A stretch of 50,931 bases of DNA from Alphaproteobacteria bacterium. GTDB taxonomy: Bacteria; Pseudomonadota; Alphaproteobacteria; UBA6615. The stretch's first letter is position 1, and every line of letters begins with the position of its first letter. Both the position numbers and the translations under genes were made by a program. Shown here piece after piece: positions 14,359-44,211 of this stretch. The stretch is taken from assembly GCA_003230015.1 (NCBI GenBank), contig QIGO01000189.1, positions 1 through 50,931 on the forward strand. Direction: 5' to 3'. A model generated the notes under the pieces. The model was not told where the DNA came from, searched no databases, and saw only the letters and a program-made list of their open reading frames with translations.

Positions 14359-14362
14359 TGAC

Positions 14363-16789: not shown

Positions 16790-16876
16790 CGCCGAAGGAA
16801 AGGAGAAGCGTGGCAGGGAAAAGAAACGAATACAAATTGCAGAAATTCAATCGTCAGATCCTGAGGAGGAGAGATC

Positions 16877-17896: not shown

Positions 17897-17901
17897 GGTT
17901 G

Positions 17902-17937
17902 TGGGGGAACTCGGGCGTTCCGGTTCCCCCATTTTTT
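17902..17937 (+). terminator. Hairpin plus T-run after the binding-protein gene (terminator or mRNA stabiliser)
   Basis: TGGGGGAAC...GTTCCCCCA stem followed by TTTTTT. Confidence 0.65.
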
Positions 17938-17997
17938 CCGAATAGGTCCGAGAATTTTGGATCAAGTGAGCGCAGGGACCTTGAGAGGGTGGACAAT

Positions 17998-18753: not shown

Positions 18754-18856
18754 GTATTGTGCCTGATGAAAATATGATCGGGCACATGGCGCTTGGCAAC
18801 GGAACCTCCGACGGGATCGAGTTCCTTGGGAGCTTGCGTAGTCCTCTGAGCAATCT

Positions 18857-19075
18857 ATGACAGAACAAGATCTTCACGAGGCTCTCGTTCACTGGCGCCG
18901 CTCGATGTTCGAGCGCGGGTCGGTCGTGTCGGGAACCACCCTGGATATCGCCACATACAACGTTGAAGAACTGGTGGACGCCGCCAGATTCGCGATAACG
19001 ATGCGCGGCCAAAAGGCGCGTTATCTTACAGCGTCCGACGTTGCCGACCTGGAAACGGCGTTCGATTCAAGGTGA
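18857..19075 (+). pseudogene. otnC: Internally deleted 3-oxo-tetronate-4-phosphate decarboxylase (class II aldolase family)
   Basis: 72 aa: an OtnC-like N-terminus (MTEQDLHEAL...RSMFERG) fused in frame to an OtnC-like C-terminus (VVSGTTL..ATYNVEEL...ARYLT..DVADL). The central metal-binding region is absent. Lies directly before otnI. Confidence 0.75.
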
Positions 19076-19080
19076 CCTAG

Positions 19081-19863
19081 ATGGCCCGTTTCTCCGCCAA
19101 TCTCGGATTCATGTGGCCAGACCGGCCTCTCCTCGAGCGGATTGACGCCGCCGCGGCCGCAGGATTTCGCGCGATCGAATTGCATTGGCCTTACGACACG
19201 CCGGGCGAATCGGTTCGCGACTCCTGCGCTGACCGCGGATTGACGCTTCTCGGCATCAACACGGCGCGCGGTAATGTCGCAGCCGGAGATTTCGGACTTG
19301 GCGCCGTGCCCGGCCGGGAAGCGGAGTTCATGGCGGCCATAGAGCAATCCATCGCTTATTGTATGGCGTCGGGCGCCTCCTCCATCCACGCGATGGCGGG
19401 CATCAATGACCCTACGCAAGAAGAGGCCGCCATGGCGGTGTTCCGCGAGAACCTGGCGGGCGCCGCCGAGCGGGCATCGGTTCATGGATTGACGTTGCTA
19501 CTCGAACCGATCAATCCGCGCGACGTGCCGGGCTATTTTTTGTCCTGCGTCGAGGCCGCCGGGGAGATCATTGAAGCGGTCGGCGCGCCGAATATCAAGA
19601 TCATGTTCGACGTCTATCATGTCGCGATCGCCCAGGGTGATGTCCTGACACGTCTTGAGCGGTACCTTCCGCTCATTGGTCATGTTCAAATCGCCGCGGT
19701 ACCGAGCCGTCATGAGCCGGATGAAGGCGAGATCGCATACGGCGCTATTTTTGATGCGCTGGAGGAACATGATTACGGCGGCTGGATCGGCTGCGAGTAC
19801 AAACCGCGGGACGCCACGGAGAGTGGGCTGGGATGGGTTCAGACGCTAGGGGTTCGGCTATGA
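19081..19863 (+). CDS. otnI: Hydroxypyruvate isomerase family, probable 2-oxo-tetronate isomerase
   Basis: RFSANL, LEPIN.RD.PGYFL, DVYH, HVQIA.VP.RHEPD.GE, GCEYKP, in otnK/otnC context. Confidence 0.82.
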   Translation: MARFSANLGFMWPDRPLLERIDAAAAAGFRAIELHWPYDTPGESVRDSCADRGLTLLGINTARGNVAAGDFGLGAVPGREAEFMAAIEQSIAYCMASGASSIHAMAGINDPTQEEAAMAVFRENLAGAAERASVHGLTLLLEPINPRDVPGYFLSCVEAAGEIIEAVGAPNIKIMFDVYHVAIAQGDVLTRLERYLPLIGHVQIAAVPSRHEPDEGEIAYGAIFDALEEHDYGGWIGCEYKPRDATESGLGWVQTLGVRL

Positions 19864-20732
19864 CCAATGTTGCCGTTGTTGTCGAGTCGAAGAACCTCCT
19901 CGGCGAGGGGCCGGTCTGGTGTTCGCGCGATCGTGTTCTCTGGTGGGTGGACATCATTGGGCGCGAGATACTTCGGTTCGATGCCGGCACGGCGATACTC
20001 GACCGCTGGCCGACGGAGATGCGGCCATGCTGCCTCGCGGTGCGTGAGGCCGGTGGCCTGATCGTTGGCTTCGATAAGGGATTCGGCCTATTTGCCCCAG
20101 AGACGGGGACGGTTACGTGGTACGCGGACAACGAGAAGGATACGCTGCGCACGCGAATCAACGACGGCAAGTGCGATCGCCGCGGCCGTTTCTTCGTCGG
20201 CACGCTGGACGACGAACTCAAGGAACATCTTGGTGCTCTCTATCGCCTCGACGCCAATGGAGTTACGTCGCAAATCGATCGCGGCTTCGGCATCTCCAAT
20301 GGCCCTGCGTGGAGCCCGGACGACAAAACATTCTATGTCGGCGACAGCATGGACAGGGCGATATACGTCTACGACTTCGATGCAGGGGCAGGGACCGTAT
20401 CGAACAAACGGGTCTTCGCGACGATAGACGATGGAGCGGGCATTCCCGATGGAGCGACAGTGGATGCCGAGGGTTTTCTGTGGAATGCTCAGTGGGATGC
20501 CTGGCGCGTGGTGCGCTATGCCCCCGACGGGCGGGTCGATCGTACTATTCAAATGCCGGTCAGGCGGCCGACGAGTTGCATGTTTGGCGGGCCTGATTTC
20601 ACGACCCTCTACGTAACTAGCGCGATCTGGGATCCATCCGATCCGTTGCTGGCCGGAGAGCCGCTAGCGGGTGCGGTCTTTGCGCTTGAAACTGGCGTGC
20701 GCGGCTTGCCCGAGCCGCGTTTTGCCGGTTGA
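19860..20732 (+). CDS. SMP-30/gluconolactonase family sugar lactonase
   Basis: LGEGPVW, RINDGKCD..GR, ISNG..WSPD, PDG..VD.EG, LYVTSA. ATGA overlap with otnI. Confidence 0.92.
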   Translation: MTNVAVVVESKNLLGEGPVWCSRDRVLWWVDIIGREILRFDAGTAILDRWPTEMRPCCLAVREAGGLIVGFDKGFGLFAPETGTVTWYADNEKDTLRTRINDGKCDRRGRFFVGTLDDELKEHLGALYRLDANGVTSQIDRGFGISNGPAWSPDDKTFYVGDSMDRAIYVYDFDAGAGTVSNKRVFATIDDGAGIPDGATVDAEGFLWNAQWDAWRVVRYAPDGRVDRTIQMPVRRPTSCMFGGPDFTTLYVTSAIWDPSDPLLAGEPLAGAVFALETGVRGLPEPRFAG

Positions 20733-20743
20733 CCGCAGGCAAT

Positions 20744-21558
20744 AGTGCTGTCAAACAAAAGCGAGCCGGTGTCAGTTTGCCGTTGGGTTTGGAATCTCAA
20801 GCTGTACAAAGCATCCGCCACTCGGACAGCGCGGCGGTGCGGTTCAGTTTGAAATTCCGGCGGCCGGTGAGATGGCGTTCGTGATTGAAATGATTGAGGA
20901 AAGACGAGTGGACGGCGGCGAACTTTTGCAGACTTCGCATCCGCCGGAACCTCTGCATAGCTCGTTCGCGTCGTCGGAGCGGCAGGTGTGAGTTCTCAGC
21001 GCGGTTATTGACCCAGCGGCCGGTCTCCTGAAGCCGTTCGTTGCCGATTTCTCGCATCGCAGCCCGATAGGACCGAAGCCGGTCGGTGACGATGGCTTTC
21101 GGCCCCCCGTACCGCTTCATGGTCTTCTTCAGAAAATGTAAAGCTGCCTTGCGATCGCGGCGTTTGGAGACATAGGCCTCCAGCACCTCGCCTTCGTGAT
21201 CGACCGCTCGCCATAGGTAGTGCGTCTCACCTCTGATCTTCACGAACATTTCGTCCAGATGCCAGCGCCACTGCGTGACCTGGCGCATCTGCTGCGCCCT
21301 CTTCCTGCGGATCTCGCCGGCGAACATCGGGCCGAAACGGTTCCACCACAGGCGCACGGTCTCGTGGCAGATGTCGATACCCCGCTCATGGAGAAGGTCT
21401 TCCACATTCCGTAGTGACAGCGGAAAGCGGATATACATCATCACCGCCAAGCGGATGATCTCGGGTGATGTTTTGAAATAGCGAAACGGATTCTTGCTCA
21501 TACAGCGAGGCTACGGAGCATCCCGGGCGCACTCAAGCCGCTTTCCCCTGACAACACC
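20744..21558 (-). mobile_element. IS6-family element with intact transposase
   Basis: Imperfect terminal IRs (AGTGCTGTCA at 20744; reverse GGTGTTGTCA ending 21558) around the transposase ORF. Confidence 0.85.
20797..21501 (-). CDS. IS6-family DDE transposase
   Basis: 234 aa with PLSLRNVEDLLHERGIDI, WHLDE, YLWRAVD, VTD and NNRAENSH. Confidence 0.95.
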   Translation of the reverse strand: MSKNPFRYFKTSPEIIRLAVMMYIRFPLSLRNVEDLLHERGIDICHETVRLWWNRFGPMFAGEIRRKRAQQMRQVTQWRWHLDEMFVKIRGETHYLWRAVDHEGEVLEAYVSKRRDRKAALHFLKKTMKRYGGPKAIVTDRLRSYRAAMREIGNERLQETGRWVNNRAENSHLPLRRRERAMQRFRRMRSLQKFAAVHSSFLNHFNHERHLTGRRNFKLNRTAALSEWRMLCTA

Positions 21559-30716: not shown

Positions 30717-31469
30717 CTAAGGCCTCCAGGGAAGAAGGATATTTAGGAGTGAAACGTTGGAGAGGCTGTGACGTTCAGACGCGAGTAACGCGTCCCAGTC
30801 CTGCGACCGTGCGTCGCCGGTACCGATATAGCGTCGCAACCGCAATTCGGCGGCGTGGTCTACAAGGATCATGATACCGCCGGGCCCGGGTAGTCCCGTA
30901 ATCGACAGGGGAACGAGTAGGAGCACGACAATGAGCAATACCAAACTGAAGCCCGGATTGTGTAGTGCCAGGAGCAGGCAAGACTTCAGGGTCGCGGAAA
31001 TATCACCTCGGTTGCGCGAGATCAGCGCAAAGAAAAATAACGACACTTGAACCCACACCGCCAAGACCCAAATGGCAACGAGCAAGGCGGCGCCTCCCAA
31101 GGCATCGCCACTCGAGCGAGCCGCCGTGGCCCCCAGCACCAGAAATGAAACCAAGCCCACGCTTGAGAAGGCCCAAAGCGTTGCTGGAAGCCAAACTTGT
31201 GCCAGCAAGGTTAGGAACCGACCCAGTCCGATTTCCTCGCGGCGAACGATGTCCCGGAGAAGACCGGCGTAGATAGCAAAGATTACAGCAAGAATGGCAG
31301 CAACCACGCCAAGGCTTGCCACGCCGAGGATGACGTTTTGAACCCCTATCCAAATTGCGCCAAAAACGGCAAGAATGGAGGCGATCGAGAAGAGAATATT
31401 GCCTAAGAAAACCACGAAGATGTTTTCCCATAGGCTCAATGCCGATCGTTTTAGAACAATGCCGATCAC
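30717..31469 (-). CDS. Integral membrane accessory protein of the carbohydrate ABC operon (YesL-like)
   Basis: Five or six hydrophobic segments. GTGA overlap with the ATPase stop. Family assignment rests on position only. Confidence 0.65.
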   Translation of the reverse strand: MIGIVLKRSALSLWENIFVVFLGNILFSIASILAVFGAIWIGVQNVILGVASLGVVAAILAVIFAIYAGLLRDIVRREEIGLGRFLTLLAQVWLPATLWAFSSVGLVSFLVLGATAARSSGDALGGAALLVAIWVLAVWVQVSLFFFALISRNRGDISATLKSCLLLALHNPGFSLVLLIVVLLLVPLSITGLPGPGGIMILVDHAAELRLRRYIGTGDARSQDWDALLASERHSLSNVSLLNILLPWRP

Positions 31470-32587
31470 GTCCGTTCACCTGCAATTGCGCTTTGCCCCT
31501 GTCCACGCTGGATGACCTTGCCCGCGTGATCGAAAAAGTGAACATTGTCGGCGTCAAAATCCGCGAAGGCCGGCGTGCCGCGTGGCAAAGCGGCGTCGTT
31601 GTCGGCACCGAGTACCGTGAGCTCCCCAAAAGGCACGGTGAAATAACGGTAACTGCGGTCGCCAAGATGTTCTGTGCCGAGCAGCTCAAACGGATCGATG
31701 CGCACTGCGACGGCACCCGCATGTGCTCCGATTCTGACATGTTCGGGCCGAACCCCCAGGACTTTCGGCTCCCCAACAACCTTATAAGGGAGCGTAAGAA
31801 GCTCTCCGCCGGTCAATATAATCTTCGTTGATTCGTTCCCCAACTCCGCCCGCTCCACTGCAAGAAAGTTCATCGCCGGCGTCCCGACGAAGCCCGCGAC
31901 GAACCTGTTGGTCGGGCGCTGATAGACCGCTAAGGGCGCGCCCACTTGTTCGATGATGCCATCGTGCATGACCACGACCCGGTCAGCCAGCGTCATTGCC
32001 TCGACTTGATCGTGGGTGACGAATACCATTGTTGCGTTGAGTTTCCGCTGCAGGCGCGCGATCTCCAGACGCATCTTACCGCGGAGCTCGGCATCGAGGT
32101 TGCTGAGCGGTTCGTCGAATAGATACACTTTAGGCTGGCGTATCATGGCACGCCCCATGGCGACTCGCTGGCGCTGCCCGCCAGATAGGTCGCGCGGCAA
32201 CCGATCCAGCAACTCGTCCAACTGCAAGATTCTTGCCGCCTCACGCACCTTCCTATCGATGGTGGCTTTGTCCTTGCCTGCCATTTTTAGAGGGAATGCG
32301 ATATTCTTATAGACTGTTTGATGGGGGTACAGGGCGTAGTTTTGAAACACCATTGCGCACCCTCTTTGCGAGGCGTCTGTATCGTTGATATATTCTCCGT
32401 CGATGTAGATATCGCCGTCCGTCACATCCTCCAGGCCGGCAATCATCCGCAGCAGTGTGGACTTACCGCAGCCAGATGGCCCAAGAAGAACCGTTAGTTC
32501 TCCGGAATTGATTTCAAGATCAATCCCATGGACGACCTCCGTCCGCCCAAACGACTTCCGCACTTTATTGAATGAGACCTGTGCCAT
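31466..32587 (-). CDS. MalK-type carbohydrate ABC ATPase
   Basis: GPSGCGKST, VFQNYALYPH, LSGGQRQR, DEPLSNLD. Confidence 0.93.
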   Translation of the reverse strand: MAQVSFNKVRKSFGRTEVVHGIDLEINSGELTVLLGPSGCGKSTLLRMIAGLEDVTDGDIYIDGEYINDTDASQRGCAMVFQNYALYPHQTVYKNIAFPLKMAGKDKATIDRKVREAARILQLDELLDRLPRDLSGGQRQRVAMGRAMIRQPKVYLFDEPLSNLDAELRGKMRLEIARLQRKLNATMVFVTHDQVEAMTLADRVVVMHDGIIEQVGAPLAVYQRPTNRFVAGFVGTPAMNFLAVERAELGNESTKIILTGGELLTLPYKVVGEPKVLGVRPEHVRIGAHAGAVAVRIDPFELLGTEHLGDRSYRYFTVPFGELTVLGADNDAALPRGTPAFADFDADNVHFFDHAGKVIQRGQGQSAIAGERT

Positions 32588-32592
32588 AACAA

Positions 32593-33597
32593 TTACCCTT
32601 TGACTGCACCGGCCATGGCGGAACGGATAAAGAGTTTCTGAAAAATGAAATACACCACAAGTATCGGAATAAGTGACATGAGTACGCCTGAAAACACCGC
32701 TTCAAAATTTCGCCCATAGGCGCCGCCGAGGGTGGCGACAAAGGCGGGTAGCGTGTATTTTTCAGGTGACAAGAACAGAAGCCCTAAAAGGAGGTCATTC
32801 CAGAACAAGGGCATCATGATCGAAGCGAATATGGCAAAAGGTGTCCCCATCAAGGGCAGCAAAATGTACCAAAAATAGTGGTAGTGCTTACCGCCGTCCA
32901 TCGCCACGGACTCCCGCAGAGACTTGGGGATTGCCGCGATGTACGTCGTAAACACCATGGTCGAGAGGGCGCCGCCCTTTATATGGAGAAGTACAATTGC
33001 AAAATAGCTGTCTTGTAATCCTAGGAATTGCGTAACGATAAAATACTGCGGCAGTATCACCATCATTGGCGGAACAATCATGTTCAGTAAATACGAGTTA
33101 TAGACAAACAAATGCCATGGACGGCGAAAGCCGGCCAACGCCGTCCCAGTCATGATCCCGAGAAATCCACCTATGGCGACGGACGAACCGGCGACGACGA
33201 TTGTGCCCCAGAGTGATTTCAGAAACCCGTTGCTAAGAACGACGAAGATTCCGTTATACTGGATGAACGGCCGCAAATATTCCTCAAGTTCTCCCGCATC
33301 TATGCCTTGGCGCTCGGCCAACTGTTGCAATGTCAACCGAGGGTCGATGTAGCCCTTGAGGCCAAAATCCTTTTTCAGTTTGGTAATGTCGATGTTGTTT
33401 ACGCTGGCGAGGTTGCCGAGCCGCGCATTCATTTGCACTTCGGGGCGTTCGGGTATCCAGAAATAGAATTCTCCCGATTTCAAGGTGGGCGTGAATGAGC
33501 GAATGACAAGGAAGTAGAATGGCACCAAGCTGATCGCGCAATAGAAGGCAAGAATAGCGGCGATCGACAGGTTTTTGAGGCGTTTTTTGCGTTCCAT
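32593..33597 (-). CDS. Carbohydrate ABC permease (MalG-type) with an enlarged loop after TM1
   Basis: IPKSLRESVAMDG, WNDLL, FQK.FI...AGAVKG, plus a hydrophilic insertion after TM1. Confidence 0.88.
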   Translation of the reverse strand: MERKKRLKNLSIAAILAFYCAISLVPFYFLVIRSFTPTLKSGEFYFWIPERPEVQMNARLGNLASVNNIDITKLKKDFGLKGYIDPRLTLQQLAERQGIDAGELEEYLRPFIQYNGIFVVLSNGFLKSLWGTIVVAGSSVAIGGFLGIMTGTALAGFRRPWHLFVYNSYLLNMIVPPMMVILPQYFIVTQFLGLQDSYFAIVLLHIKGGALSTMVFTTYIAAIPKSLRESVAMDGGKHYHYFWYILLPLMGTPFAIFASIMMPLFWNDLLLGLLFLSPEKYTLPAFVATLGGAYGRNFEAVFSGVLMSLIPILVVYFIFQKLFIRSAMAGAVKG

Positions 33598-33598
33598 G

Positions 33599-34597
33599 TC
33601 AATGATACTGCATTTTTTTCTGCAGCTTGTTCAAATAGAAGGCGACGGAGACGAGAGGCAAAAACACGACGAGAGATACCGCGATGCCTTGCGCCAAAGT
33701 GCCGGTCTTTGCACCGAAATTTTGAGACGTGGCGAAACCGAGCTCATATATGAGAATTGAAAGAAATCGTGCATCGGTGTTGCCGGCCAGACCACCGAGA
33801 CCGACAAGTTCGTCAAATATTCCAAAACCGCCTATCAGCGCGAAGATCGTCGCGATGATGATGCTTGGCCGCATTTGCGGGATATAGACATAAGCGACCC
33901 GCTTGACATAGTTGGCGCCGTCCATCTTCGCAGATTCTATGGTTTCCCGGGGAATGGATAGAAGGCCGCCGAGAAACAGCGCCATGTTAAACCCGGCCGT
34001 CTTCCAGCCGTAAATGACCGGTAGGCCAAATACGCTTGCGGCCTCGCCGCGAACGTCGAAAGTGTTTTTTCCGAGACCTAACGCCTGGATCGCCAGGTTC
34101 GCCGTGCCGGTGTCGCGGGTGAACAACATGATCATGAGAAGGCCGATACCGACGCCCGAAACCATCCACGGCATGTATATGATTGTAAAGAAGGCTCCCT
34201 TGAATTTCGACGAAAGCTCGTACATGGCGAGAGCCAGAAGAAAACCGAAGGCAAAAACCATAATATAGTTGACGAGGGTAAACAGCGCTGTACGACGCAG
34301 TGTCGCAAAGAAGATATCGCGCATCGGTTCCTGGAATAGTGAAACGATGTTCCTCATGCCGACAACGTCTATGTCCCGATCCAGGAAATCGATTTGGTCC
34401 GTGAACACGATTGGCAACGCCACAACGAACGGCACGACCAGCAGGCCGATGTAGAGCGCGTATTGTGGGCCCGCGTACAGCAGATCGACGAGAAATTCGC
34501 GGAAAAGCCGTGATCGCTTGGCTCGCTTCTTGGTGCGTGCGCTGGGGAGAAGCCGGCGCCCCTCCCCAACGTCTTGAACTACCTGCTGTGTAGGCAT
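33599..34597 (-). CDS. Carbohydrate ABC permease (MalF-type)
   Basis: WKTAGFN, IPRETIESAKMDGA, six TM segments. Confidence 0.9.
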   Translation of the reverse strand: MPTQQVVQDVGEGRRLLPSARTKKRAKRSRLFREFLVDLLYAGPQYALYIGLLVVPFVVALPIVFTDQIDFLDRDIDVVGMRNIVSLFQEPMRDIFFATLRRTALFTLVNYIMVFAFGFLLALAMYELSSKFKGAFFTIIYMPWMVSGVGIGLLMIMLFTRDTGTANLAIQALGLGKNTFDVRGEAASVFGLPVIYGWKTAGFNMALFLGGLLSIPRETIESAKMDGANYVKRVAYVYIPQMRPSIIIATIFALIGGFGIFDELVGLGGLAGNTDARFLSILIYELGFATSQNFGAKTGTLAQGIAVSLVVFLPLVSVAFYLNKLQKKMQYH

Positions 34598-34639
34598 GCG
34601 ACTTGTATCAACACGTCCAACCTCGGCAGTAGCTTGGCA

Positions 34640-35995
34640 TTATCCGGCTTGGTATGCCCGTTCCCAGCGTTTCTGCAGAATGGCCAGCGTATCTTCTAGC
34701 GTCGTCCGGCCTTCCAGATAGTCGGCATAGATCTCGGCCATCTGATTGTCCTGCAATGGCCGCGGTGTACCGCTGATGCGCATCCTTTCCGCCGCGCAGC
34801 GCCCGCACAGACTGTAGTCGAATTTGGCACCTCCATAGACCTGGCCGTCAAGGACAGGCTTGATGACCTTGACATACTGGTCGTTGGTCAGGTCGGCGCC
34901 ACCGACTGAACTCAGATCCATTGCCGGGACAAATCCGATCGCCTCGGACCGCAGTTTAACGGTCGCCGGGCTGTTCCACCAATTGAAGAGTTTGACGGCC
35001 TCGGCGAATTCGGGATCATCTTGCCTCTGCGCATAGAGAACCGAGCCATAGTCGCTTGTGACCTCGGGTCCCCAGATCTTACCGTCGCGGTTCGGTGGCC
35101 AGAAGAAACCGTCGAGTTGGGCGTCGGCGTCGACCGCCTGTACTTTGTCGAACAGCCACGGGCCATGGAAAGTCAAGATGGACCGGCGGGAGATAAAGCT
35201 GGCTTCGAACTCCTGTTCCCAATTCCGGGTCCACCAGCGCTCCGGCATATAGCCTTTGTCGTAAAACTCCTTCAGTGTGCGGAAATACTTGGTCATTGGG
35301 TTCTTATCGACGTCATCCCAGCGAATCTTGCCCGTGTAAAGGTCGCGGATTTCCTGCTTGGTCGCGCCAAGGCCCACCGACCACACCTCTGGATTGAAAC
35401 GGCCCCAGGCTCCCGGAAGCCAGCCGGCGTCGATGACGTATTCAATATCAGGGTTGCCATCAACATAGACCTTCAAGTCCGCCAGGAACTGCATGAAGTC
35501 ATCCAGATTTTGGATGCTCTTTGGATCCAACCCTGCTTTCTCCATTTCATCGGCGTAGTAGATGAAGCTACGGAACGGATTGGTGCGAACGTTCAGTGCT
35601 GGCTGAACGCCGTCGATACCGGTGACCCCCTCGAACGCCCCGGCGCCATCGTAGGACAGCGCGCCAAAATTCTCGATGTCGTCCCGTTCAAGCAGGTTCA
35701 CATAGGTCTTGTAGTTGTCGGCGTCGGGATAAACGAGGTCGCGAATATAGGGCGCGCCGCCGGCGGCGATTCGGGCCTCGAATGCCGCTTCGGTGTCCTC
35801 ATTCACGGACGATAGGTTGATCGTGACGTTCGGGTTCTCTTCCTCATAGAGGTCAAGTATGCCCCGAAACTGGGCCGAGTATTCGCCTTCGGTGACTACG
35901 AATGTGAGTTCGACAGGCTGCTGGCCGAGTGCCGGCAAACTTGCCATGACACTTGCCAGCAGGCCGCCGACGATCAGAATGGGAATAGACTTCAT
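34640..35995 (-). CDS. Carbohydrate ABC extracellular solute-binding protein
   Basis: Signal peptide, YEEENPNVTI, EKAGLDP, HGPW. First gene of the ABC operon. Confidence 0.85.
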   Translation of the reverse strand: MKSIPILIVGGLLASVMASLPALGQQPVELTFVVTEGEYSAQFRGILDLYEEENPNVTINLSSVNEDTEAAFEARIAAGGAPYIRDLVYPDADNYKTYVNLLERDDIENFGALSYDGAGAFEGVTGIDGVQPALNVRTNPFRSFIYYADEMEKAGLDPKSIQNLDDFMQFLADLKVYVDGNPDIEYVIDAGWLPGAWGRFNPEVWSVGLGATKQEIRDLYTGKIRWDDVDKNPMTKYFRTLKEFYDKGYMPERWWTRNWEQEFEASFISRRSILTFHGPWLFDKVQAVDADAQLDGFFWPPNRDGKIWGPEVTSDYGSVLYAQRQDDPEFAEAVKLFNWWNSPATVKLRSEAIGFVPAMDLSSVGGADLTNDQYVKVIKPVLDGQVYGGAKFDYSLCGRCAAERMRISGTPRPLQDNQMAEIYADYLEGRTTLEDTLAILQKRWERAYQAG

Positions 35996-36183
35996 TTGCG
36001 CGTTCTCCCAGTAAACTAGCGTGCCAACCCTCTTTGCCGGGGTCTTGCATGATTCATATATAGGTTTATAGCATTATACTCTCGGAACGCACAAGGCCGG
36101 GCCAAGCGCATCAATGCGGCGGCGGCATCCGGACACACCATGTTTGACGCGTCGGGTTGCGCGTTGGCGCGCCGGTTTGTTTG

Positions 36184-37020
36184 TTATGCGACGCGACCCG
36201 TGACTTGACGAAAAAACGGCTCGGCTACTTTTAGGAATGCGTTCGGATCCTCCCAGAGGACCATTGCGTTGAGCCGCGACAGTGTGACCAGACGGGCATT
36301 GGGGATTTTTCGCGCCACCGCCTTGGCCATCTCTGCGGTCGGTCCGGCATTCCAGCGGTTGCGTCCAAACGCCACCAGGAGAGTAGGCGCCTCGATCCGG
36401 CCGAATTCCGCCGTCGTTAGCCATTCCCGCTGGATTGCGCGATCCCATTTCATCATTGTTTCAGCGTCAAGTTTTAGGAACGGATCATGGCTCGCACGCG
36501 CGATGGCCAGCCGCTCGACCTCTTCGAAATGGTCGTCGACAAACTCTGCGCTCATCGTGGACATGAACCAGTAGAACGCATAAAGCTCTCGGTCCGGCTG
36601 CTCAAACATCACGCGGCGAAACGCCAGGAATTTCTCGGTAACCCGCATGTCCTGACCTGAGTGAAAAGGTCCCACCGCAGTGCAAGAAAGTACACGCTCC
36701 GGGTATTCGACGGCGCACCGTAAGGCAATGTGGGATCCGCCGACCCACCCCAGAATATGAAACTGCTTGGCATTCAGCGCCTCCGCCACCTCGACGCAGG
36801 CTTTGGCGAATGAACCGAACATGGCCTTTGGCCGGTCCAGCACGCTATCTTTGGGCAGAGGGAGGCCGACGGCCGCCAGACTGAAGGCCTCTGCCAGCCT
36901 AGGCCAGATTCTGTCCCAGACATGGCTGCCGGGTTGTGCCATCCGGACCAGAAGCATTAGAGGTTTGCCCGGCTGTAGCGAGTAGGCTACCTCCGTGTCG
37001 CCGAGCTTCAATATTTGCAT
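36184..37020 (-). CDS. Alpha/beta-hydrolase fold protein lacking the canonical catalytic Ser and His
   Basis: Fold hallmarks: WDRIWPRLAEAF, HILGWVGGS, A.EYPERV.S, I.APTLLV.G, IPNARLV..., EDP. Confidence 0.8.
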   Translation of the reverse strand: MQILKLGDTEVAYSLQPGKPLMLLVRMAQPGSHVWDRIWPRLAEAFSLAAVGLPLPKDSVLDRPKAMFGSFAKACVEVAEALNAKQFHILGWVGGSHIALRCAVEYPERVLSCTAVGPFHSGQDMRVTEKFLAFRRVMFEQPDRELYAFYWFMSTMSAEFVDDHFEEVERLAIARASHDPFLKLDAETMMKWDRAIQREWLTTAEFGRIEAPTLLVAFGRNRWNAGPTAEMAKAVARKIPNARLVTLSRLNAMVLWEDPNAFLKVAEPFFRQVTGRVA

Positions 37021-37126
37021 GTAATACCGACCCCTCTCCCTTAATATGAAGCTATATATGTCTTAAAGGGGATGGATTTGTGTTAGATATGGATGGTGAA
37101 ATCTTCGTGGTGGCAAGGGATAACCC

Positions 37127-37885
37127 ATGAGTTCGACGGGCGAGTTGTTTACGCGATTGTTCGACCAGCAGACAACGTCTGGTGCGCCGAAATATTTCGC
37201 ACTTCGCGGTGCGATCTTGAAGATGATCGAACAGAAACATTGGCAGGTTGGCGACAAGCTTCCGCCTGAGCAGGCCATGACAAAGCTGACCGGAATCAGT
37301 CTGGGAACCGTTCAGAAGGCACTTGGTTCGCTGGCCGATGACGGTTTGCTTTTTCGCGAGCAGGGTCGAGGCACGTTCGTCGCATCGCCCGAGATGCAGC
37401 TGCGCGACCCATGGCATTTTCGCTTTCTCAACGAGGCAGGGGACGCCCTGTTGCCGGTCTACACACGGGCCTTGTCGTGCGAACTCACCGCCGATACCGG
37501 TCCGTGGTCCAGCTTTCTTGGCGAAGACCAGGACGAGTTCGTCCGGATAACGCGTTTGCTGGACGTTAATCGCGAGTTCCGTTGTTACAACCTCTTTTAT
37601 CTTGGTGCGCGGTTGTTCGGCCCGCTGGCGAAGAAATCGCTCGCCAAGCTGCATGGCCGAAACATCAAGCACATTCTGGCGGATGAGTTTGGGGTCGAAA
37701 CACGGCACGTCACCCACCGGCTTCGCGCCGGTCGCTTCGATGCTAAAATACGCGAAATCATCAACTGCCCACGCGGTACGACAGGCTTGATTCTTGAGAT
37801 TTACGGCCAAACGCACAGGCGGAAGCCGTTATACTTCCAACGCACGTTCATTCCACCTTCCGAGCGCTGGTTGGCGGCGTCATAG
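37127..37885 (+). CDS. GntR-family regulator, HutC/UTRA type
   Basis: PKY..L, GDKLPPE, SLGTVQKAL, QGRGTFV, then a beta-rich UTRA-like C-terminus. Confidence 0.88.
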   Translation: MSSTGELFTRLFDQQTTSGAPKYFALRGAILKMIEQKHWQVGDKLPPEQAMTKLTGISLGTVQKALGSLADDGLLFREQGRGTFVASPEMQLRDPWHFRFLNEAGDALLPVYTRALSCELTADTGPWSSFLGEDQDEFVRITRLLDVNREFRCYNLFYLGARLFGPLAKKSLAKLHGRNIKHILADEFGVETRHVTHRLRAGRFDAKIREIINCPRGTTGLILEIYGQTHRRKPLYFQRTFIPPSERWLAAS

Positions 37886-38651
37886 CAGCACGCGACCGAA
37901 CAAGCCCGTCGCGAAGCGCGTTGAAGAGCAGCTTAACATCTGCCGAGTAGGATAACAGGGTAAAGCCAGCCTCGCCCGCTGCCGCCGCGGCCTCGGCGTC
38001 ACCAACCAGCCGGCCGGCGGCTTTGCCGGAAGACCGTGCGGCCTCCACAACGTCCGCCACGGCAGTTTTAAAAGTAGAAGTATCAAACTCCCCCGGCCGG
38101 CCAAGCGACGCGCTAAGGTCTGCGTGGCCGAGCCAAACACAGTCCACGCCCTGGACTGACGCGATGGACTTCGCGTTCTTGACGCCGTCAACCGTCTCGA
38201 TCTGAGCAAACACGGCGGTTTCGAGGTTCGCCCGACTTAAGTTCTCGACCATTGCTATGGAACGGTAACGATCGTGTCCGATCTGTTGCGCAATTCCTCT
38301 TGCCCCTGCCGGGTGGTACTTTGCGGAGTGGACAATTTCGGCTGCTGCCGCTTCGGAGCCGACCATGGGAACCATGATCGCGTCCGCGCCGACATCGAGC
38401 GCCCGGCCAATATGCTCGCCGGGTGCTGGAATTCGAACGACGCACGCCAGATCGGCGGCCTCGAAATACCTCACAACACGCTTCAGCTCACCATAGTCCA
38501 ACCCACTATGTTCCATGTCGACAATGGCGAAGTCGCAACCCGCCTGCCGAAGAATATGACCGATCCCCGGCGTAAAAAACTCGAAAATCAAGGTGCCTAT
38601 CAGCGGTTTGGATCTATTCGTGACGCGGCTGCGGAAGCTTTCTTTCAACAC
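37848..38651 (-). CDS. HpcH/HpaI family class II pyruvate aldolase
   Basis: DMEHS, VVRIP, LDVGA..IMVPMV, QIET, G.ADLS.SLG. Confidence 0.9.
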   Translation of the reverse strand: MLKESFRSRVTNRSKPLIGTLIFEFFTPGIGHILRQAGCDFAIVDMEHSGLDYGELKRVVRYFEAADLACVVRIPAPGEHIGRALDVGADAIMVPMVGSEAAAAEIVHSAKYHPAGARGIAQQIGHDRYRSIAMVENLSRANLETAVFAQIETVDGVKNAKSIASVQGVDCVWLGHADLSASLGRPGEFDTSTFKTAVADVVEAARSSGKAAGRLVGDAEAAAAAGEAGFTLLSYSADVKLLFNALRDGLVRSRAAMTPPTSARKVE

Positions 38652-38768
38652 TGGTCTTTATCATCCCTAATCGGCTGGCGGCCCCTTTGACACGCAAATG
38701 TTGCTCTTGCAGGGTTGATAATAACTATATAGCTTAACAGGAAAATCGTCCAGGGCTTCGATGGATAT

Positions 38769-40019
38769 TTGGGCTTGAAGTATACTGACCAAGAGAAAGC
38801 AATCTTGCAGGGTGAGGGCGGCGAGCCGAGGAGGTGGGCGCTCGAGCAGCAAATTGCCGTGGGCGAGTTCTTTGACGCTGAGGATTTCGTCGAAGTTACG
38901 CAGGTGCACTTATGCGCTGATACGGAGGCGCTTGGCGCCAGCGGCGTTCAGTTTGTCGAGAATATTGCCGGTACCAAAATTGGGGGCCGCGTTTGTGTGC
39001 CGTCGATCACCGACCCTCGCGGCGCCGATTTTGCCCAAATAAATGCCATAAACCACGATCCGGATATAGTTGCCTTGGAGCGGCGGCTCTCGGCAGCGTT
39101 GTCATCAATCGGCTTTCTTATGACAAACACTTGCATTAACTACCAGTACGTCCTGCCGCCGGCTCGCGGAGAGCATCTCGCATTTGGCGATACCGGGTCT
39201 GTCATATATGCAAACGGTGTCGCCGGGGCGTATTCGAACTATGAGGGCGGGCCGGCAGCATTGGCAGCGGCGCTGACGGGCCGCGTGCCGCGCTACGGTT
39301 TTCATCTTTCCAGTAAGCGAACGGGCACCCAACTATACCGGCTGACAGGGGACCTCGGCACCTATAGTGACTGGGGGGCGGTTGGCGGGTTAATTGGCAG
39401 GGATATGGAATCCTACTGGGATGTGCCCGTTATCATCTCCAAACGACGGCCGCGATCCGACGAGTTGAAGCATCTCGGCGCGGCACTTGCCAGTTATGGC
39501 TCCACGGGCATGTTTCATTTTGTCGGAGTAACCCCGGAAGCGCCGACGATCGAGGCTGCCTTCGCCGGATTGCCGGTACCGGCCGGCCGCACGATTGGAT
39601 CGGCCGACATTCGATCGTTTTACGAGGCCTTTCATACGTCGAAGCAAGAATTGGATGTCGTCGTCTTCGCGGCCCCCCAGCTGTCGCTGTTCGAGTTGGG
39701 TGAACTGGCAGCAATGCTGGACGGCAGGCAGTTGCATGACGGTACGGCGCTGCTGGTTGCGGTACCCAAAGCGGTCAAAGTGATCGCCGACGAAAATGGC
39801 TTGACCCAGGCCGTCGAGGGGGCCGGCGGGATCGTCCTGGAGGGTGTTTGCTTTTATCAGATGCATGCCCGCGAGCTCGCCCGCGCCAACGGCTGGCGCA
39901 CACTCATGACCAACTCCGCAAAACTCGTGAACATCATTTCCGGGTATGGCTATGAGCCTGTTCTCGGATCGATGCGGCAATGTGTCGCCTCCGCCCTCGC
40001 CGGCCGGTTTTTGCGATGA
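38769..40019 (+). CDS. Aconitase X large (catalytic) subunit, DUF521
   Basis: NTCINY, GEHLAFGD, ANGVAGA.SN.EG, TGRVP.YG.H, LKHLGAALAS.G..GMFH.VGVTPEA, PQLS..E, MTNSAK. Confidence 0.88.
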   Translation: MGLKYTDQEKAILQGEGGEPRRWALEQQIAVGEFFDAEDFVEVTQVHLCADTEALGASGVQFVENIAGTKIGGRVCVPSITDPRGADFAQINAINHDPDIVALERRLSAALSSIGFLMTNTCINYQYVLPPARGEHLAFGDTGSVIYANGVAGAYSNYEGGPAALAAALTGRVPRYGFHLSSKRTGTQLYRLTGDLGTYSDWGAVGGLIGRDMESYWDVPVIISKRRPRSDELKHLGAALASYGSTGMFHFVGVTPEAPTIEAAFAGLPVPAGRTIGSADIRSFYEAFHTSKQELDVVVFAAPQLSLFELGELAAMLDGRQLHDGTALLVAVPKAVKVIADENGLTQAVEGAGGIVLEGVCFYQMHARELARANGWRTLMTNSAKLVNIISGYGYEPVLGSMRQCVASALAGRFLR

Positions 40020-40489
40020 ATGAATCCAAATTTCGGGCGATGGCGGCCATGGGGCCAACCGTTGCGGGCGTGGCATTAGTCGCCTCTGATGATTTCAGCG
40101 CCCGCTACGATCTTGATCTCGCGCGTGGCGTCTTCTCACGTCCGGGTCATTCGCTCTTTGGGCGGAGTTACGTGGATCGCATCCTTGTGCTGAACGCCGC
40201 GAAAGGCGGCGTCGCGACGTCTTGGATGCTCCGAGACATGGTGATGCGGGGGCGCGCGCCGCTGGCGCTCTTGTTGAACTTCGCCAATCCGATCATGGCC
40301 CAGGCCGCGGCTTTTGCCGAGGTTTCGTTCATGAGCGGTTTTCCGGTGGACATCACGTCCGCCATCGCTTCAGGCGACCATATTGAACTTTCACCGGCGA
40401 CACGGGAGTTGACGATCGTCTCGCGAGGAGCAGACGAGGGGCCGGATTTCTCGTCAATGGAAGCCGCGCTGATTGAATCACGTAACTAG
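40016..40489 (+). CDS. Aconitase X small (swivel) subunit, DUF126
   Basis: G.ALV..D.FS, G...R.GH.L.G.S...RILV...KGG, APLALL. ATGA overlap with the large subunit. Confidence 0.85.
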   Translation: MNESKFRAMAAMGPTVAGVALVASDDFSARYDLDLARGVFSRPGHSLFGRSYVDRILVLNAAKGGVATSWMLRDMVMRGRAPLALLLNFANPIMAQAAAFAEVSFMSGFPVDITSAIASGDHIELSPATRELTIVSRGADEGPDFSSMEAALIESRN

Positions 40490-40516: not shown

Positions 40517-41314
40517 CTAGTCGCGGCCAAGTTGATCGGACTCAGCGAACCGGTAGGCAGACTCAACCAACTTTAGCGTTTCAAGGTTGTCAGGCAGAGA
40601 AGTTTCGAATTCGTGTCCGCTCCTAAGGCAGTTGACGAAATGCGAGATCGCGCCGAAATAGCCCTCTTGAATGGCCGCACCCGGATCATACCGATGCTGT
40701 TTGGGGAGAGCGCCCAACAATTGCACCGTATCGCCATCGCAGATAATTGCGCCGTGGTCACCAAGCAACTCGAAACGATCCGACACAACGGGTGGAAAAC
40801 CTTGTACTGCCATATTTATTTCAAGCACGACCGGAACGCCCTCTGCTGCCTCAAACACTAGCGTTGCGGCTGTTTCGCCGGGAAGATCCGGCTGTGTCCT
40901 GGCAAGCCAACCCTGTATTCTTCGATAGTGGGGCCGAAACCGCCAATTCTCATGCACCATCAGACGGAACCCAGGCCCGATATTGGCAGCGAGCGCGAGT
41001 GCTTCGGCGAGACTAGGGGCGAGCGGCTTTTGGCAGAGTGTCGGCGTTCTCGCTGCGTACGCCTTTCTAACGAGGTCTGTATGGGTTTCCCGTGGCGTCG
41101 CTATGTCGAGCGCGTCAGGGGCCTCATGGAGCAACATCTCTTCAATCGTTGCGTAGGCGGCGGGCACATCGAACTTCGCAGCCTGCTGCCACGCCCGCTC
41201 GATGTTCGGGTCGCATATTGCGACGACTGATGCGTTTGCGACCCGGCGCCACGCCGCGAGATGAAACCCGCTGACGAACCCTGCACCAGCTAGACCCACA
41301 CGTAGTTGGTTCAT
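40517..41314 (-). pseudogene. Gfo/Idh/MocA oxidoreductase, probably internally deleted in frame
   Basis: GAGFVS, DIATP..H, CQKPLA, HENWRFRP. Only about 265 aa, jumping from 'IQGWLA' to 'RTQPDLPGET' without the central IH..D segment. Confidence 0.65.
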
Positions 41315-41348
41315 CGTTCGGCCTCTGCCGCGGCGCGCATTCCTAGGC

Positions 41349-41687
41349 CTAGCCAGCGAACTCTGCCGCGGGCTGCGGCAGTTCAACTAGGTTGTCGATC
41401 GGTTGCTGTCGATAAAATCGATCAATGTTGCGGAAGATCGTTCGCATCTTCAGTTGGAACGCGTCCCGAGCGCCGGCGGCAAAATGCGGTGTGACGACGA
41501 CGTTGGGCAAGTCAAGAATGGCATTGTTCGCGTGCGGTGGTTCAACCTCGAATACGTCCAAACCGGCACCGCCCAAATGCCCACTCTCGAGGGCTGTATG
41601 GAGGGCTTTTTCATCGATGAGGAGGCCGCGGGCAGTATTGATGAGGATTGCTCCTCGCTTCATCATTTGGACGGTCCTTGCGTTGAT
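41349..41687 (-). pseudogene. 2-hydroxyacid dehydrogenase, C-terminal fragment
   Basis: MKRGAILINTARG, GAGLDVFEVEP, TPHFAA. The N-terminal two-thirds, including the GxGxxG motif, is missing. Confidence 0.85.
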
Positions 41688-41922
41688 CTGGAAATTCAGC
41701 CCCAAAGCCGCCAGCCACGCCGCTCGCTTTCGATTTCACCCGGGGCAAGAGAACGAGGAGCTAAAGGATGGTTCGCTCGTGGTGCGTTTCAAGGCCTGCG
41801 GGCATCTCGAAATGTGCTGGCATCTCTACACCTGGGGTGACCAAGTTGAGATCCTTGGTCCAAGGGTTCTCGCTGACATGGTGGCCGGTTTTCGACGGGG
41901 TGATTTTCCGGCTTTGCCGTGA
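41686..41922 (+). pseudogene. C-terminal (WCX-like) fragment of a WYL-domain protein
   Basis: IWKFSPKAA.HA..F.FHP.Q......DGSLVVRF.A.G.LEM.WHL..WGDQVEIL.P..L pattern typical of WYL/YafY-type C-termini. Confidence 0.75.
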
Positions 41923-42699: not shown

Positions 42700-42769
42700 T
42701 GCATCCTGGCCGATTAGCGGCATGTGCAACTTGTTTGGAAGGACGGCAAGAAAGACCCAAGGGCGCTGT

Positions 42770-43207
42770 CACGTTTCCGCTTGACCAGGCCATGGCGGTC
42801 GAGGACCGCATGAACCGTGCTCTTGGCGGGAATACGTAGATCGCCGGCAAGGCGGCGTACCAGCAGCTCGCGGATCTTCCTGGCGCCCCAATGGGGCTTC
42901 TCCCGCTTGAGGCGCACGATCATGTGCTCAAGCTGCTCAGGCAGCTGATTGGCATAACGCACCGGGCGCCGGGAGCGGTCGCACAGGGCCTCCAGACCCT
43001 GTTCCTTGTAACGATCGTAGATCTTATAGCCGGTCTTGCGCGATATGCCGAAACACCGGCACACCTCGCTCATGCCCTCGCCATCGAAAAGGCGGGCGAC
43101 AAACCGAAGACGCTCTTCCATCACCGAACTCTCCTTCCACGGCATCAACACCTCCCGCCAAATGGCGAAAAGTGTTACCCATGTGTCCGGTACAAAGCGT
43201 CACCTAT
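42770..43207 (-). mobile_element. IS481-family transposase 5' fragment with partial left end
   Basis: MPWKESSVMEERLRFV..VCR.FGISRKTGYK..DRSRRP..WGARKI..STVHAVLDRHGLV. The integrase core is missing. Upstream repeats TAGGTGAC..TGGGTAACAC. Confidence 0.85.
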
Positions 43208-43401: not shown

Positions 43402-44211
43402 GGGGCTGTGTCAGACCAAATCGGCTTGAAGCTGGCGTGGCTCTCGCCTAGCGTCGGCGAATGAAGAAACCGTTCCGGTATTTCAACAGTTCACCCGAGG
43501 TGATCCGCCTCACGGTGCTGATGTACATCCGCTATCCGCTGTCGCTGCGCCAGGTCGAGGATCTGCTGCATGAGCGTGGCATCGATATCTGCCATGAGAC
43601 GGTGCGTTTCTGGTGGAACCGGTTCGGTCCGATGTTTTCCGCCGAGATACGGAAACGGCGGGTTCATCATCAATCGTATTCGAACTGGCGCTGGCACCTG
43701 GACGAGGTAATCGTGTGGATCAACGGTGAGACCCACTACCTCTGGCGTGCAGTTGATCACGAAGGCGAGGTCCTTGAGGTAATGGCCACGAAACGGCGGG
43801 ATCGTAAGGCTGCGCTCAAGTTCCTGAAGCGCACGATGAAGAGATACGGGCGACCGTGTTTGGTCGTGACGGACCGACTTCGGTCGTATCGAGCGGCGAT
43901 GAAGGTGCTCGGCAATGCTACGAGTCAGATTTGCGGTCGTTGGCTCAACAACCGGGTGGAAAACTCACACCAGCCGTTCTGACGACGAGAGGGAGCGATG
44001 GCGAAATTCCGGCAGATCAAGACCCTCCAGAAATTCGCCACTGTTCACGCCTCGATCTGTAACCATTTCAAGCGGGAACGCCACCTCAACCGCCGCGACG
44101 TTTTCAAACGAAACCGCTCCGCTGCCCTGGCCGAATGGCGTCGGCTGGCGGCCTGAAAACCCCATTGACTGACTCATTCGAGGCCGATTCGAATTAGACT
44201 GACACTGCCCC
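43402..44211 (+). mobile_element. IS6-family element with inactivated transposase
   Basis: IRs GGGGCTGTGTCAG (43402) and CTGACACTGCCCC (ending 44211). Confidence 0.88.
43461..44156 (+). pseudogene. IS6 transposase with a premature stop
   Basis: TGA at 43980-43982 within NSHQPF*RRERAM. The same frame continues to AALAEWRRLAA*. Confidence 0.88.

Follow-up and report, generated by a model that had tools for sequence, protein, structure and literature searches.

A large branch of two-subunit aconitase X without the catalytic serine, and its possible partnership with an HpcH/HpaI aldolase

Introduction

Two activities are known for aconitase X (AcnX): dehydration of cis-3-hydroxy-L-proline (C3LHyp), represented here by AtAcnX from A. 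tumefaciens, and dehydration of mevalonate-5-phosphate, carried out by the Type-IIb enzyme TkAcnX from T. kodakarensis (TK1249/TK1248, 7CNR/7CNS). Here we describe an AcnX that appears to have neither activity. It is encoded on contig QIGO01000189.1 of an alphaproteobacterium, positions 1-50,931 of which (50,931 nucleotides) were analysed and are called the window. The region studied, 36184..40489, contains the genes for the large (AcnXL) and small (AcnXS) subunits, divergent from the gene for an HpcH/HpaI aldolase and next to that for a HutC-type GntR regulator. This arrangement had been noticed in an earlier sequence-only reading, which proposed a dehydratase–aldolase pathway, and is borne out by the open reading frames and Pfam matches. 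The explanation that we favour, tentatively and with a little less than even confidence, is that AcnX dehydrates an imported acid-sugar-like carboxylate and that the aldolase cleaves the product, giving the familiar layout of regulator, transporter, dehydratase and aldolase with AcnX as the dehydratase.

Six subclasses of two-subunit AcnX, a to f, have been distinguished (Watanabe et al. 2021, PMC8184944). It is thus already known that there are bacterial subclasses, Type-IIc to IIf, that carry none of the landmark residues of the two known activities and are yet to be characterised; the passages of that paper that deal with them give no function or gene context and do not mention loss of the serine. 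Full-text searching of the literature revealed no third AcnX function evident from titles or abstract openings. With only two activities known and four bacterial subclasses without a function, assignment of a reaction would give AcnX a third function.

A second group of described systems is relevant to the aldolase. The E. coli rhmRDTA (YfaU, PDB 2VWS) and garD/garL clusters are modules of regulator, transporter, dehydratase and HpcH aldolase. The sulfo-Entner-Doudoroff (sulfo-ED) and sulfofucose (SfcF/SfcE) pathways also use a PF03328 aldolase, with the dehydratase slot occupied by IlvD/EDD or enolase-superfamily enzymes (PMC12421959); since that slot is filled by unrelated families, there is a precedent for AcnX in it. 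The window resembles all these modules in bringing together a regulator, an importer, a PF03328 aldolase and one hydro-lyase. It differs from them in that the hydro-lyase is AcnX, rather than an enolase-superfamily, IlvD/EDD or UxaA/GarD enzyme, and in having no working dehydrogenase or lactonase.

Results and discussion

Active-site residues of AcnX

Both subunits are clear members of the family, AcnXL scoring 338.9 bits against PF04412 (cut-off 31.5) and AcnXS 62.5 bits against PF01989 (cut-off 27). They were compared with all PDB chains using phmmer, and the alignments were mapped onto the residue roles given in PMC8184944 (Table 1; the chain numbering of AtAcnX in the PDB is the native number plus 10). 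The best solved matches of AcnXL are TkAcnX (7CNR, E 6.2e-45), which has the same two-subunit architecture, and AtAcnX (7CNP, E 6e-37), in which the two parts are fused. AcnXS matches AF0055, TK1248 (E 4.6e-05) and AtAcnX. The motif differences listed in the sequence-only reading stand up to alignment: AFGDTGSV lies opposite AWSESSAV of TkAcnX and GWAESNAV of AtAcnX, where the family pattern is AW(S/A)ES(S/N)AV, and KGGVATS lies opposite KGSTVGS (TK1248, AF0055) and RGSCTGS (AtAcnX), where it is (K/R)GS.

Table 1. Residues with roles assigned in PMC8184944 and their counterparts in the window AcnX
AtAcnX	TkAcnX	Role	Window AcnX
Ser70	Ser62(S)	Catalytic base	Gly77
Cys71, Thr72		Substrate binding	Val78, Ala79
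Asp203		Substrate binding	Cys49
Glu292	Glu129	Holds C3-OH	Asp141
Ser293	Ser130	Holds carboxylate	Thr142
Lys530	Lys361	Carbanion stabiliser and proton donor	Lys385 (kept)
Tyr534	Tyr365	Contacts water on substrate carboxylate	Ile389
Cys273	Cys110	Cluster ligand	Cys122 (kept)
Cys508	Cys342	Cluster ligand	Cys361 (kept)
	Cys283 (GCPHAS)	Cluster ligand	Ala302 (AAPQLS)
Cys510		Cluster ligand	Tyr363

The swivel loop of AcnXS lacks the catalytic serine, a replacement by glycine that is seen in three independent phmmer alignments. AcnXL has two of the three cysteines of the cluster, and these are the cysteines of NTCINY and GVCFY that had been picked out as probable ligands from the sequence. Type-IIa likewise has only these two cysteines, and a conserved Glu has been proposed there as a possible ligand (PMC8184944). 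Retention of both cysteines and the lysine, together with an acidic residue at the Glu129 position, is what the window enzyme shares with TkAcnX; with AtAcnX it shares the fold family and the same three residues.

The remaining residues point away from both known activities. AcnXL scores 186.1 bits against the C3LHyp dehydratase model NF051439, for which the cut-off is 700, and Ser70, Cys71, Thr72, Asp203, Ser293 and Tyr534 of AtAcnX are all substituted. The phosphate site of TkAcnX (Gly48-Val49-Ser50, Asn53, Asn79) corresponds to Ala50, a gap, Asp51, Ala54 and Asp82, so that the phosphate loop is replaced by a stretch containing Asp51 and Glu53; Glu129/Ser130/Ser131 become Asp/Thr/Gly. The earlier suggestion that neither known activity applies is therefore supported by the alignments. 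The pathway context points the same way, since no hydroxyproline or mevalonate genes were found among the window genes scanned; a gene of the Pro_racemase family is present on a contig other than the window's. That this bacterial enzyme is a C3LHyp or mevalonate-5-phosphate dehydratase after all is scarcely credible, the homology that speaks for it being at the level of the family.

A branch of AcnX without the serine

The substitutions are not peculiar to the window. A protein search scored 8000 candidates, 7991 of them with E <= 1e-20, and the best 120 relatives of AcnXL are 57-73% identical to it (67-73% for the closest, P0002-P0005). Relatives were found in 442 species-representative genomes, and metagenome contigs held at least 545. 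Eighty genome and 80 metagenome loci were kept from these scans and, with genomes G001 and G047, make up the 162 loci compared with the window; 157 large and 147 small subunits from them were aligned. All 157 large subunits have Cys122, Cys361, G140-D141-T142-G143 and P303-Q304, with Ala302 in 154 and Lys385 in 155. The acidic pocket residues Asp51, Glu53 and Asp82, which this branch has gained, are invariant. All 147 small subunits have K75-G76-G77-V78-A79. In a full HMMER pass over 1.84 billion cluster representatives, AcnXS had 204 matches at E <= 1e-10; among the best 150, the KGG loop occurs in 131 and KGS in none, the other 19 being fragments that do not include the loop.

Because the replacement residues are conserved across the branch, the serine-less state defines a large selected group: judged from the alignments, the motif changes are neither chance nor local decay, and mark a branch under purifying selection. 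It could be argued that an enzyme that has lost its catalytic serine and one cysteine ligand is a dead pseudoenzyme. This is very unlikely, given that the replacement residues are invariant across 147-157 sequences from several phyla, and that the subunit genes stay adjacent (in 150 of the 162 loci, the remainder being mostly truncated contigs) in regulated operons with transporters. We therefore regard AcnXL/AcnXS as an intact, translationally coupled two-subunit hydro-lyase of a strongly conserved bacterial branch. Being bacterial, in two subunits and without the landmark residues of either activity, the branch most likely belongs among the uncharacterised Type-IIc to IIf (PMC8184944). It has replaced a residue that is basic to the superfamily mechanism, and thus provides a test of how the aconitase fold functions without its serine base and with fewer cluster ligands.

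Two candidates for the missing groups were considered. Cys49 can be ruled out as a branch-wide replacement for the third cluster ligand, as this position is Met in 151 of the 157 sequences and Cys in 6. Ser/Thr80 of AcnXS is weakened as a general replacement base: it is kept in 147 of 147 close members but not in the wider set, where the pattern [KR]GG[VI]A[AGT]GW, found in 18 of the best 150 AcnXS matches, mostly has no hydroxyl at position 80.

The regulator and its operator

The window regulator has an N-terminal GntR helix-turn-helix (HTH) and a C-terminal UTRA domain, as expected for the HutC subfamily. The palindrome CTATATAG occurs as a single exact copy in the window, between the aldolase and acnX genes. 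Sites with at most one mismatch number 6 in the window against 3.85 expected, which is not above chance alone; two of them, ATATATAG and CTATATAT, are listed as candidates in Table 2. Among the 60 relatives searched, a single other genome, G001, belongs to the genus of the window. It has two exact copies in 14 kb (0.1 expected, and 2 of 300 shuffles reach two), one in the GntR/aldolase intergenic region and one upstream of a sulfatase gene. An 11-base word, CTATATAGTTA, is also common to the aldolase intergenic regions of the window and G001, and with respect to the aldolase it points the same way in both.

The palindrome follows the regulator across the branch. An exact copy is present in all 15 loci that have a homologue of the window GntR and in 2 of the 147 others, although these loci are related and the counts are not independent. 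The sites are located either upstream of AcnXL, at a distance of 40-141 bp, or immediately in front of the GntR gene where this heads the operon. CTATATAG thus appears to be the operator through which a dedicated HutC-type regulator acts on AcnX. The location of the palindrome between aldolase and acnX argues that in the window the two are co-regulated by GntR, probably together with the importer operon. Four loci have paired copies of the palindrome 23 bp apart, between GntR and a downstream TctC gene (L029:4276-4306, L111:9531-9561, L131:10806-10836, L152:7331-7361), and in this clade GntR probably also controls the importer. The regulator–operator pair marks related operons in cultured Methylobacterium (sp. 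C25), Ancylobacter (A. mangrovi), Chenggangzhangella (C. methanolivorans) and Hansschlegelia (H. zhihuaiae), in which genetics is possible.

The aldolase and its pairing with AcnX

The window aldolase matches PF03328, and its nearest solved chains are HpcH/HpaI aldolases. It keeps 41 of the 46 columns that are invariant in eight homologues, including the DxEH, VR, IE and DL motifs, which we take to be the catalytic residues, and it looks like an intact class II (pyruvate) HpcH/HpaI aldolase. Its scores are under the NCBIfam equivalog cut-offs for HpaI (134, cut-off 369), GarL (105, cut-off 407) and RhmA (88, cut-off 441).

A tblastn search with two HpcH aldolases (E 1e-6) found such a gene near AcnX in one of the 162 other loci, namely G001. 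Here GntR, AcnXL and AcnXS form one operon (61%, 67% and 63% identical to the window proteins, respectively), and the HpcH aldolase gene is divergent from it. Further along are genes for a sulfatase, an ApnL-like protein of about 650 residues (596 bits, where the cut-off of the D-apionate lactonase model is 750), an ABC importer, a second GntR and another sulfatase. AcnX is rare in this family of bacteria: apart from genome G000, any AcnX match was found in 2 of 36 same-family genomes.

The adjacency of aldolase and AcnX could be meaningless, with AcnX acting alone on an imported acid and the aldolase coming from a separate, partly decayed catabolic module. Several observations count towards this, against our favoured explanation, or both. 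The remaining 161 loci have no HpcH aldolase near AcnX. There are six PF03328 copies in genome G000. The aldolases of the window and G001 share 44% identity, and other paralogues are at least as close to them, so that their orthology is unsupported. In related genomes, the usual partners of HpcH aldolases are a D-2-hydroxyacid dehydrogenase (2-HADH) and an ApnL-like lactonase, and a 2-HADH fragment and a short Gfo/Idh/MocA gene do lie just past acnXS, near remnants of insertion sequences. On the other side, two different HpcH paralogues directly adjoin the AcnX/GntR unit in two species. Whether the aldolase was exchanged for another or diverged fast, a PF03328 gene lies beside AcnX in both, and chance is an unlikely cause: for about 6 copies in a genome of roughly 3000 genes, we estimate a chance adjacency of ~0.4% per genome. 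In addition, the operator is in the common intergenic region in both genomes. We therefore consider a meaningless adjacency to be quite improbable. Of the original proposal, the expectation of a different substrate, and probably an altered mechanism, has survived; the aldolase link is plausible and recurs in G001, but it is not a general rule.

Relatives of the aldolase elsewhere suggest how such a link could have arisen. Among 10 regions taken from 400 genomes of the class searched, none had a dehydratase partner for the aldolase. The usual module consists of an ABC importer, an ApnL-like lactonase, an HpcH aldolase and a 2-HADH. It is found in other Alphaproteobacteria (L201:11632-20000 and L207:1901-10093, where the ApnL-like protein again has about 650 residues), and suggests a route for a sugar from lactone to acid to 2-oxo acid, followed by retro-aldol cleavage. 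It is also found on contig C96 of G000 (L208:1-10339), which has a second HpcH aldolase, 43% identical to that of the window, with a 2-HADH; divergent from these are genes for an ApnL-like lactonase (637 bits, cut-off 750), a RuBisCO-like protein, a DUF1537-type kinase and a PGDH_C protein. The C96 cluster looks like an acid-sugar pathway of the D-apionate type, which was reportedly described in 2018. The 2-HADH of this module is not seen in G001, where AcnX is present, and is only a fragment in the window. A switch from oxidation to dehydration as the means of making the 2-oxo-acid substrate of the aldolase would account both for the absence of 2-HADH and for the presence of AcnX.

A sub-clade in an acid-sugar context

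The window AcnX belongs to a small sub-clade, together with G001, P0002-P0009, P0027 and the loci L002-L004, L090 and L092. All 15 members checked, and G001, have Cys49, Thr378 and His366. At these pocket-lining positions most of the branch has Met49 (151/157), Arg378 (140/157) and Tyr366 (148/157); position 49 is that of Asp203 in AtAcnX. Three sister loci have usable flanking sequence (L002, L003, L092), and in all of these there are acid-sugar genes; together they encode a PdxA2-type D-threonate-4-phosphate-dehydrogenase-like protein, a DUF1537 kinase, an Ldh_2 dehydrogenase, an enolase-superfamily sugar-acid dehydratase, a xylose-isomerase-like TIM protein and an EamA transporter.

Gene neighbourhoods and a possible link to sulfur

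Across the 162 loci the neighbourhoods vary by clade. Counts were made for 82 genome and 80 metagenome loci. TctC is the commonest of the neighbours counted (31 genome and 21 metagenome loci), followed by TauD (16 and 17), aldo-keto reductase (AKR; 13 and 18), GntR (8 and 7), TauE (8 and 4) and sulfite-oxidase-type genes (3 and 2). A sulfatase gene is a neighbour in 6 loci. Many Gammaproteobacteria have the order AKR-AcnXLS-(CNNM)-TauD; in about 30 of these loci (for example L030, L046, L058, L063 and L072) it is part of a conserved string comprising a metallo-beta-lactamase-fold protein, a ferredoxin-adenylate/guanylate-cyclase fusion, AKR, AcnXL, AcnXS, (CNNM) and a TauD-family dioxygenase. 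The Arenicellales-type loci have AcnXLS-TauE-TctCBA, in the order AcnXL-AcnXS-TauE-TctC-TctB-TctA in L010-L014, L093 and L094; upstream of these there is often a gene for an AMP-binding enzyme together with an aldehyde-dehydrogenase-like gene. TctC-AcnXLS occurs in Hyphomicrobiaceae, and also on a Sulfitobacter plasmid, with DUF3604, succinate-dehydrogenase-like (SDH-like), class I fumarase-like and sulfite-oxidase-type genes. On the plasmid (L209, Sulfitobacter sp. S190, NZ_CP081121.1), an FAD oxidoreductase gene is followed by AcnXL/S, which faces an operon encoding SdhB-like, SdhD/C and SdhA-like proteins and a class I fumarase-like enzyme of two subunits; LysR and TctC/B genes are alongside. 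Further contexts include PrpF, PrpD and FAD enzymes. Some operons are minimal: AcnXLS is joined by GntR and a single transporter (MFS, TctC or TRAP), and in some cases by a GMC oxidoreductase or a sulfatase as well. Overall, the context of the branch speaks for an imported carboxylic acid as substrate and, in several clades, hints at sulfonated or sulfated compounds.

These neighbours raise the question of whether the reaction is a sulfur-linked elimination, in which sulfite (or sulfate) is removed from a 2-hydroxy-3-sulfo or sulfated acid, for example sulfolactate to pyruvate as with SuyAB; in the window such a step would come after that of a KDSG-type PF03328 aldolase. In some clades, the AcnXL-AcnXS-TauE-TctCBA layout presumably mirrors that of suyAB-suyZ-slcHFG, which encode the (R)-sulfolactate sulfo-lyase SuyAB, the exporter SuyZ and the importer SlcHFG. 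SuyAB belongs to a family other than AcnX, and the likeness is one of operon layout only, with no homology claimed; the operons in question could nevertheless mark a non-homologous sulfo-lyase. The TauD, TauE, sulfite-oxidase-type and sulfatase neighbours across the branch, the sulfatases of the G001 locus, and locus L091, which groups TauE, GntR, DUF3604, AcnX and SdhA-like genes, would all fit. A good leaving group would also make the loss of the serine base and one ligand tolerable, and the KDSG and KDSGal aldolases are PF03328 proteins (PMC12421959). In the window itself the evidence is less favourable. The SuyAB/SuyZ/SlcHFG genes are absent, and no sulfite exporter, sulfite oxidase, or sulfolactaldehyde or sulfosugar dehydrogenase was found among the window genes scanned; a membrane protein at 30717-31469 was considered as a TauE-type exporter, and no likeness to TauE was found. 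The window sub-clade differs from the TauD, TauE and TctC clades at positions 49, 366 and 378, its sister loci have acid-sugar genes, and the invariant acidic residues Asp51, Glu53 and Asp82 sit awkwardly with an anionic sulfonate. We regard a sulfur-linked reaction as an unlikely explanation, though one to be kept in mind.

Proposed route

We propose that GntR controls AcnX through CTATATAG, in the region common to the acnX promoter and the divergent aldolase promoter, and that a polyhydroxy, acid-sugar-like carboxylate would be imported. This compound may already be an acid, because the window has no working dehydrogenase or lactonase to make one. By homology, the main chain of the swivel loop and Thr142 would hold the substrate carboxylate, and Asp141 and Lys385 would hold the beta-hydroxyl at the metal site. 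A base would take the alpha-proton, AcnX would eliminate water across the alpha and beta carbons, and the enol product would tautomerise to a 4-hydroxy-2-oxo (2-keto-3-deoxy) acid. The aldolase would then split this 2-oxo-3-deoxy acid into pyruvate and an aldehyde. The metal centre is perhaps a cluster on the two cysteines and Asp141, or a different site formed from Asp51, Glu53 and Asp82. Of the parts of an Entner-Doudoroff-type module, the window thus has a candidate dehydratase (AcnX), an aldolase and an importer; its Gfo/Idh/MocA dehydrogenase seems truncated, and it is G001 that has an ApnL-like lactonase.

Beyond the points already made about the aldolase, a number of features weigh against this route. 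Many GntR-AcnX operons are partnered only by a transporter (MFS, TctC or TRAP) or a GMC oxidoreductase, an arrangement that would suit the direct conversion of a small acid to a central metabolite. TauD (33 loci), TauE (12), sulfite-oxidase-type (5) or SDH/fumarase-like genes accompany AcnX in much of the branch. In the window, the Gfo/Idh/MocA protein is shortened and the hydrolase-fold protein has no catalytic triad, leaving no working dehydrogenase or lactonase. Finally, the evidence on function is contextual throughout, and in an enzyme without the serine base the chemistry may not be classical AcnX dehydration.

The last point leads to an alternative within the same regulon, in which the chemistry or the order is different: AcnX would be a hydratase, or an aconitase-style isomerase or epimerase, working on an unsaturated or hydroxy acid, or would act on the product of the aldolase, so that the aldolase is not fed by AcnX. 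The aconitase superfamily carries out both dehydration and hydration reversibly (PMC8184944), and the absence of the canonical serine base fits a change of chemistry. A hydratase or isomerase step would also suit loci such as L088, where AcnX occurs with PrpF, PrpD and TcuA-like FAD enzymes, and those with SDH-like and class I fumarase-like genes. However, both characterised AcnX enzymes stop at dehydration (PMC8184944), and the minimal GntR-transporter-AcnX operons need a one-step conversion to a central metabolite. Such different chemistry is in our view improbable, but far from negligible.

A dehydratase–aldolase pathway is plausible, but confined to the window's genus. The wider proposal, that the branch as a whole comprises unrecognised acid-sugar (or sulfo-/sulfated-acid) dehydratases or lyases without a serine base and with a metal site of two cysteines and Asp, feeding a class II aldolase under a dedicated HutC-type repressor in the window's genus, is possible but rather doubtful. 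If it is true, catabolism would gain a new non-phosphorylative route, and the aconitase superfamily a new catalytic solution. What the window locus adds to the known subclasses is an operator, a sub-clade signature and a compact, assayable enzyme pair. It offers a convenient handle on the branch: one regulator with an 8-bp operator, one importer, AcnXL/S, and an aldolase whose pyruvate product is easily assayed.

Layout of the locus and neighbouring genes

The features of the locus are listed in Table 2. There are five intact genes inside the region studied. One of them, encoding an alpha/beta-hydrolase-fold protein, was not mentioned in the sequence-only reading; the other genes are as described there.

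Table 2. Features of the AcnX locus, in window coordinates
Feature	Position	Strand	Remarks
ABC importer operon	31466..35995	-	ATPase 31466-32587, permeases 32593-33597 and 33599-34597, solute-binding protein 34640-35995
Candidate GntR operator ATATATAG, one mismatch	36056..36063	.	61 bp upstream of binding-protein gene
Alpha/beta-hydrolase-fold gene	36184..37020	-	Abhydrolase_1 E 2.4e-06; first gene of ABC operon
Candidate GntR operator CTATATAT, one mismatch	37052..37059	.	Hydrolase-fold/GntR divergent intergenic region
HutC-type GntR	37127..37885	+	GntR E 1.5e-15 and UTRA E 2.3e-07 (Pfam)
HpcH/HpaI aldolase	37848..38651	-	PF03328 E 5.5e-32; convergent with GntR gene, overlaps its end
Likely GntR operator, exact CTATATAG palindrome	38725..38732	.	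74 bp upstream of aldolase start, 37 bp upstream of AcnXL start
AcnX large subunit (AcnXL)	38769..40019	+	PF04412 E 4.5e-101; divergent from aldolase across 117 bp; key residues Cys122, Cys361, Asp141-Thr142, Lys385; sub-clade markers Cys49, Thr378, His366
AcnX small (swivel) subunit (AcnXS)	40016..40489	+	PF01989 E 3.3e-17; loop K75-G76-G77-V78-A79-T80; most likely start
Gfo/Idh/MocA oxidoreductase, short	40517..41386	-	Likely start 41314, giving 265 aa
D-2-hydroxyacid dehydrogenase C-terminal fragment	41349..41735	-	2-Hacid_dh_C profile positions 109-178 of 178 only; pseudogene remnant

The open frame of AcnXS begins at 39980. Conservation among homologues begins near residue 13, and the ATG at 40016 overlaps the TGA stop of AcnXL as ATGA, because of which 40016 is most likely the true start.

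The importer binding protein matches SBP_bac_8 (E 5.2e-16), with no solved relative in the PDB and no NCBIfam match, and the ATPase has 51% identity with its ABC_tran/MalK-type counterpart in the G001 locus. The hydrolase-fold protein was considered as the lactonase of the pathway and ruled out, as the catalytic serine and histidine of its triad are gone: in comparison with the esterase 6EB3, the nucleophile motif GVSMG is GWVGG and the triad His is Ala. This could be a member of the alpha/beta-hydrolase fold that has no catalytic role or serves in binding.

Downstream of acnXS the DNA is decayed, and contains the short Gfo/Idh/MocA gene, the 2-HADH fragment (a stop-to-stop frame of 128 aa), a DUF3841 gene, an IS481-type HTH fragment (42714-43151) and a truncated IS6 transposase gene. 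The Gfo/Idh/MocA protein has a good N-terminal domain (E 4.3e-21), but its C-terminal domain is matched only from profile position 64 of 124 (E 0.0084), and homologues have about 378-391 aa. The gene has probably decayed; with half of the C-terminal domain lost, it is a doubtful candidate for a pathway dehydrogenase. Two IS6-family (IS240-type DDE) transposase genes, at 20797-21501 and 43461-43982, are inverted relative to each other and flank about 22 kb including the AcnX cluster. They are only 75% complementary over 176 nt and the second is truncated, which rules out a recent IS6 composite transposon around the cluster.

Elsewhere in the window, positions 10672-20732 hold another acid-sugar-like cluster, with genes for a thiamine pyrophosphate enzyme, an SDR, a DUF1537-type kinase (14192-15622), a ribose-type ABC importer, a xylose-isomerase-like TIM protein and an SMP-30/gluconolactonase.

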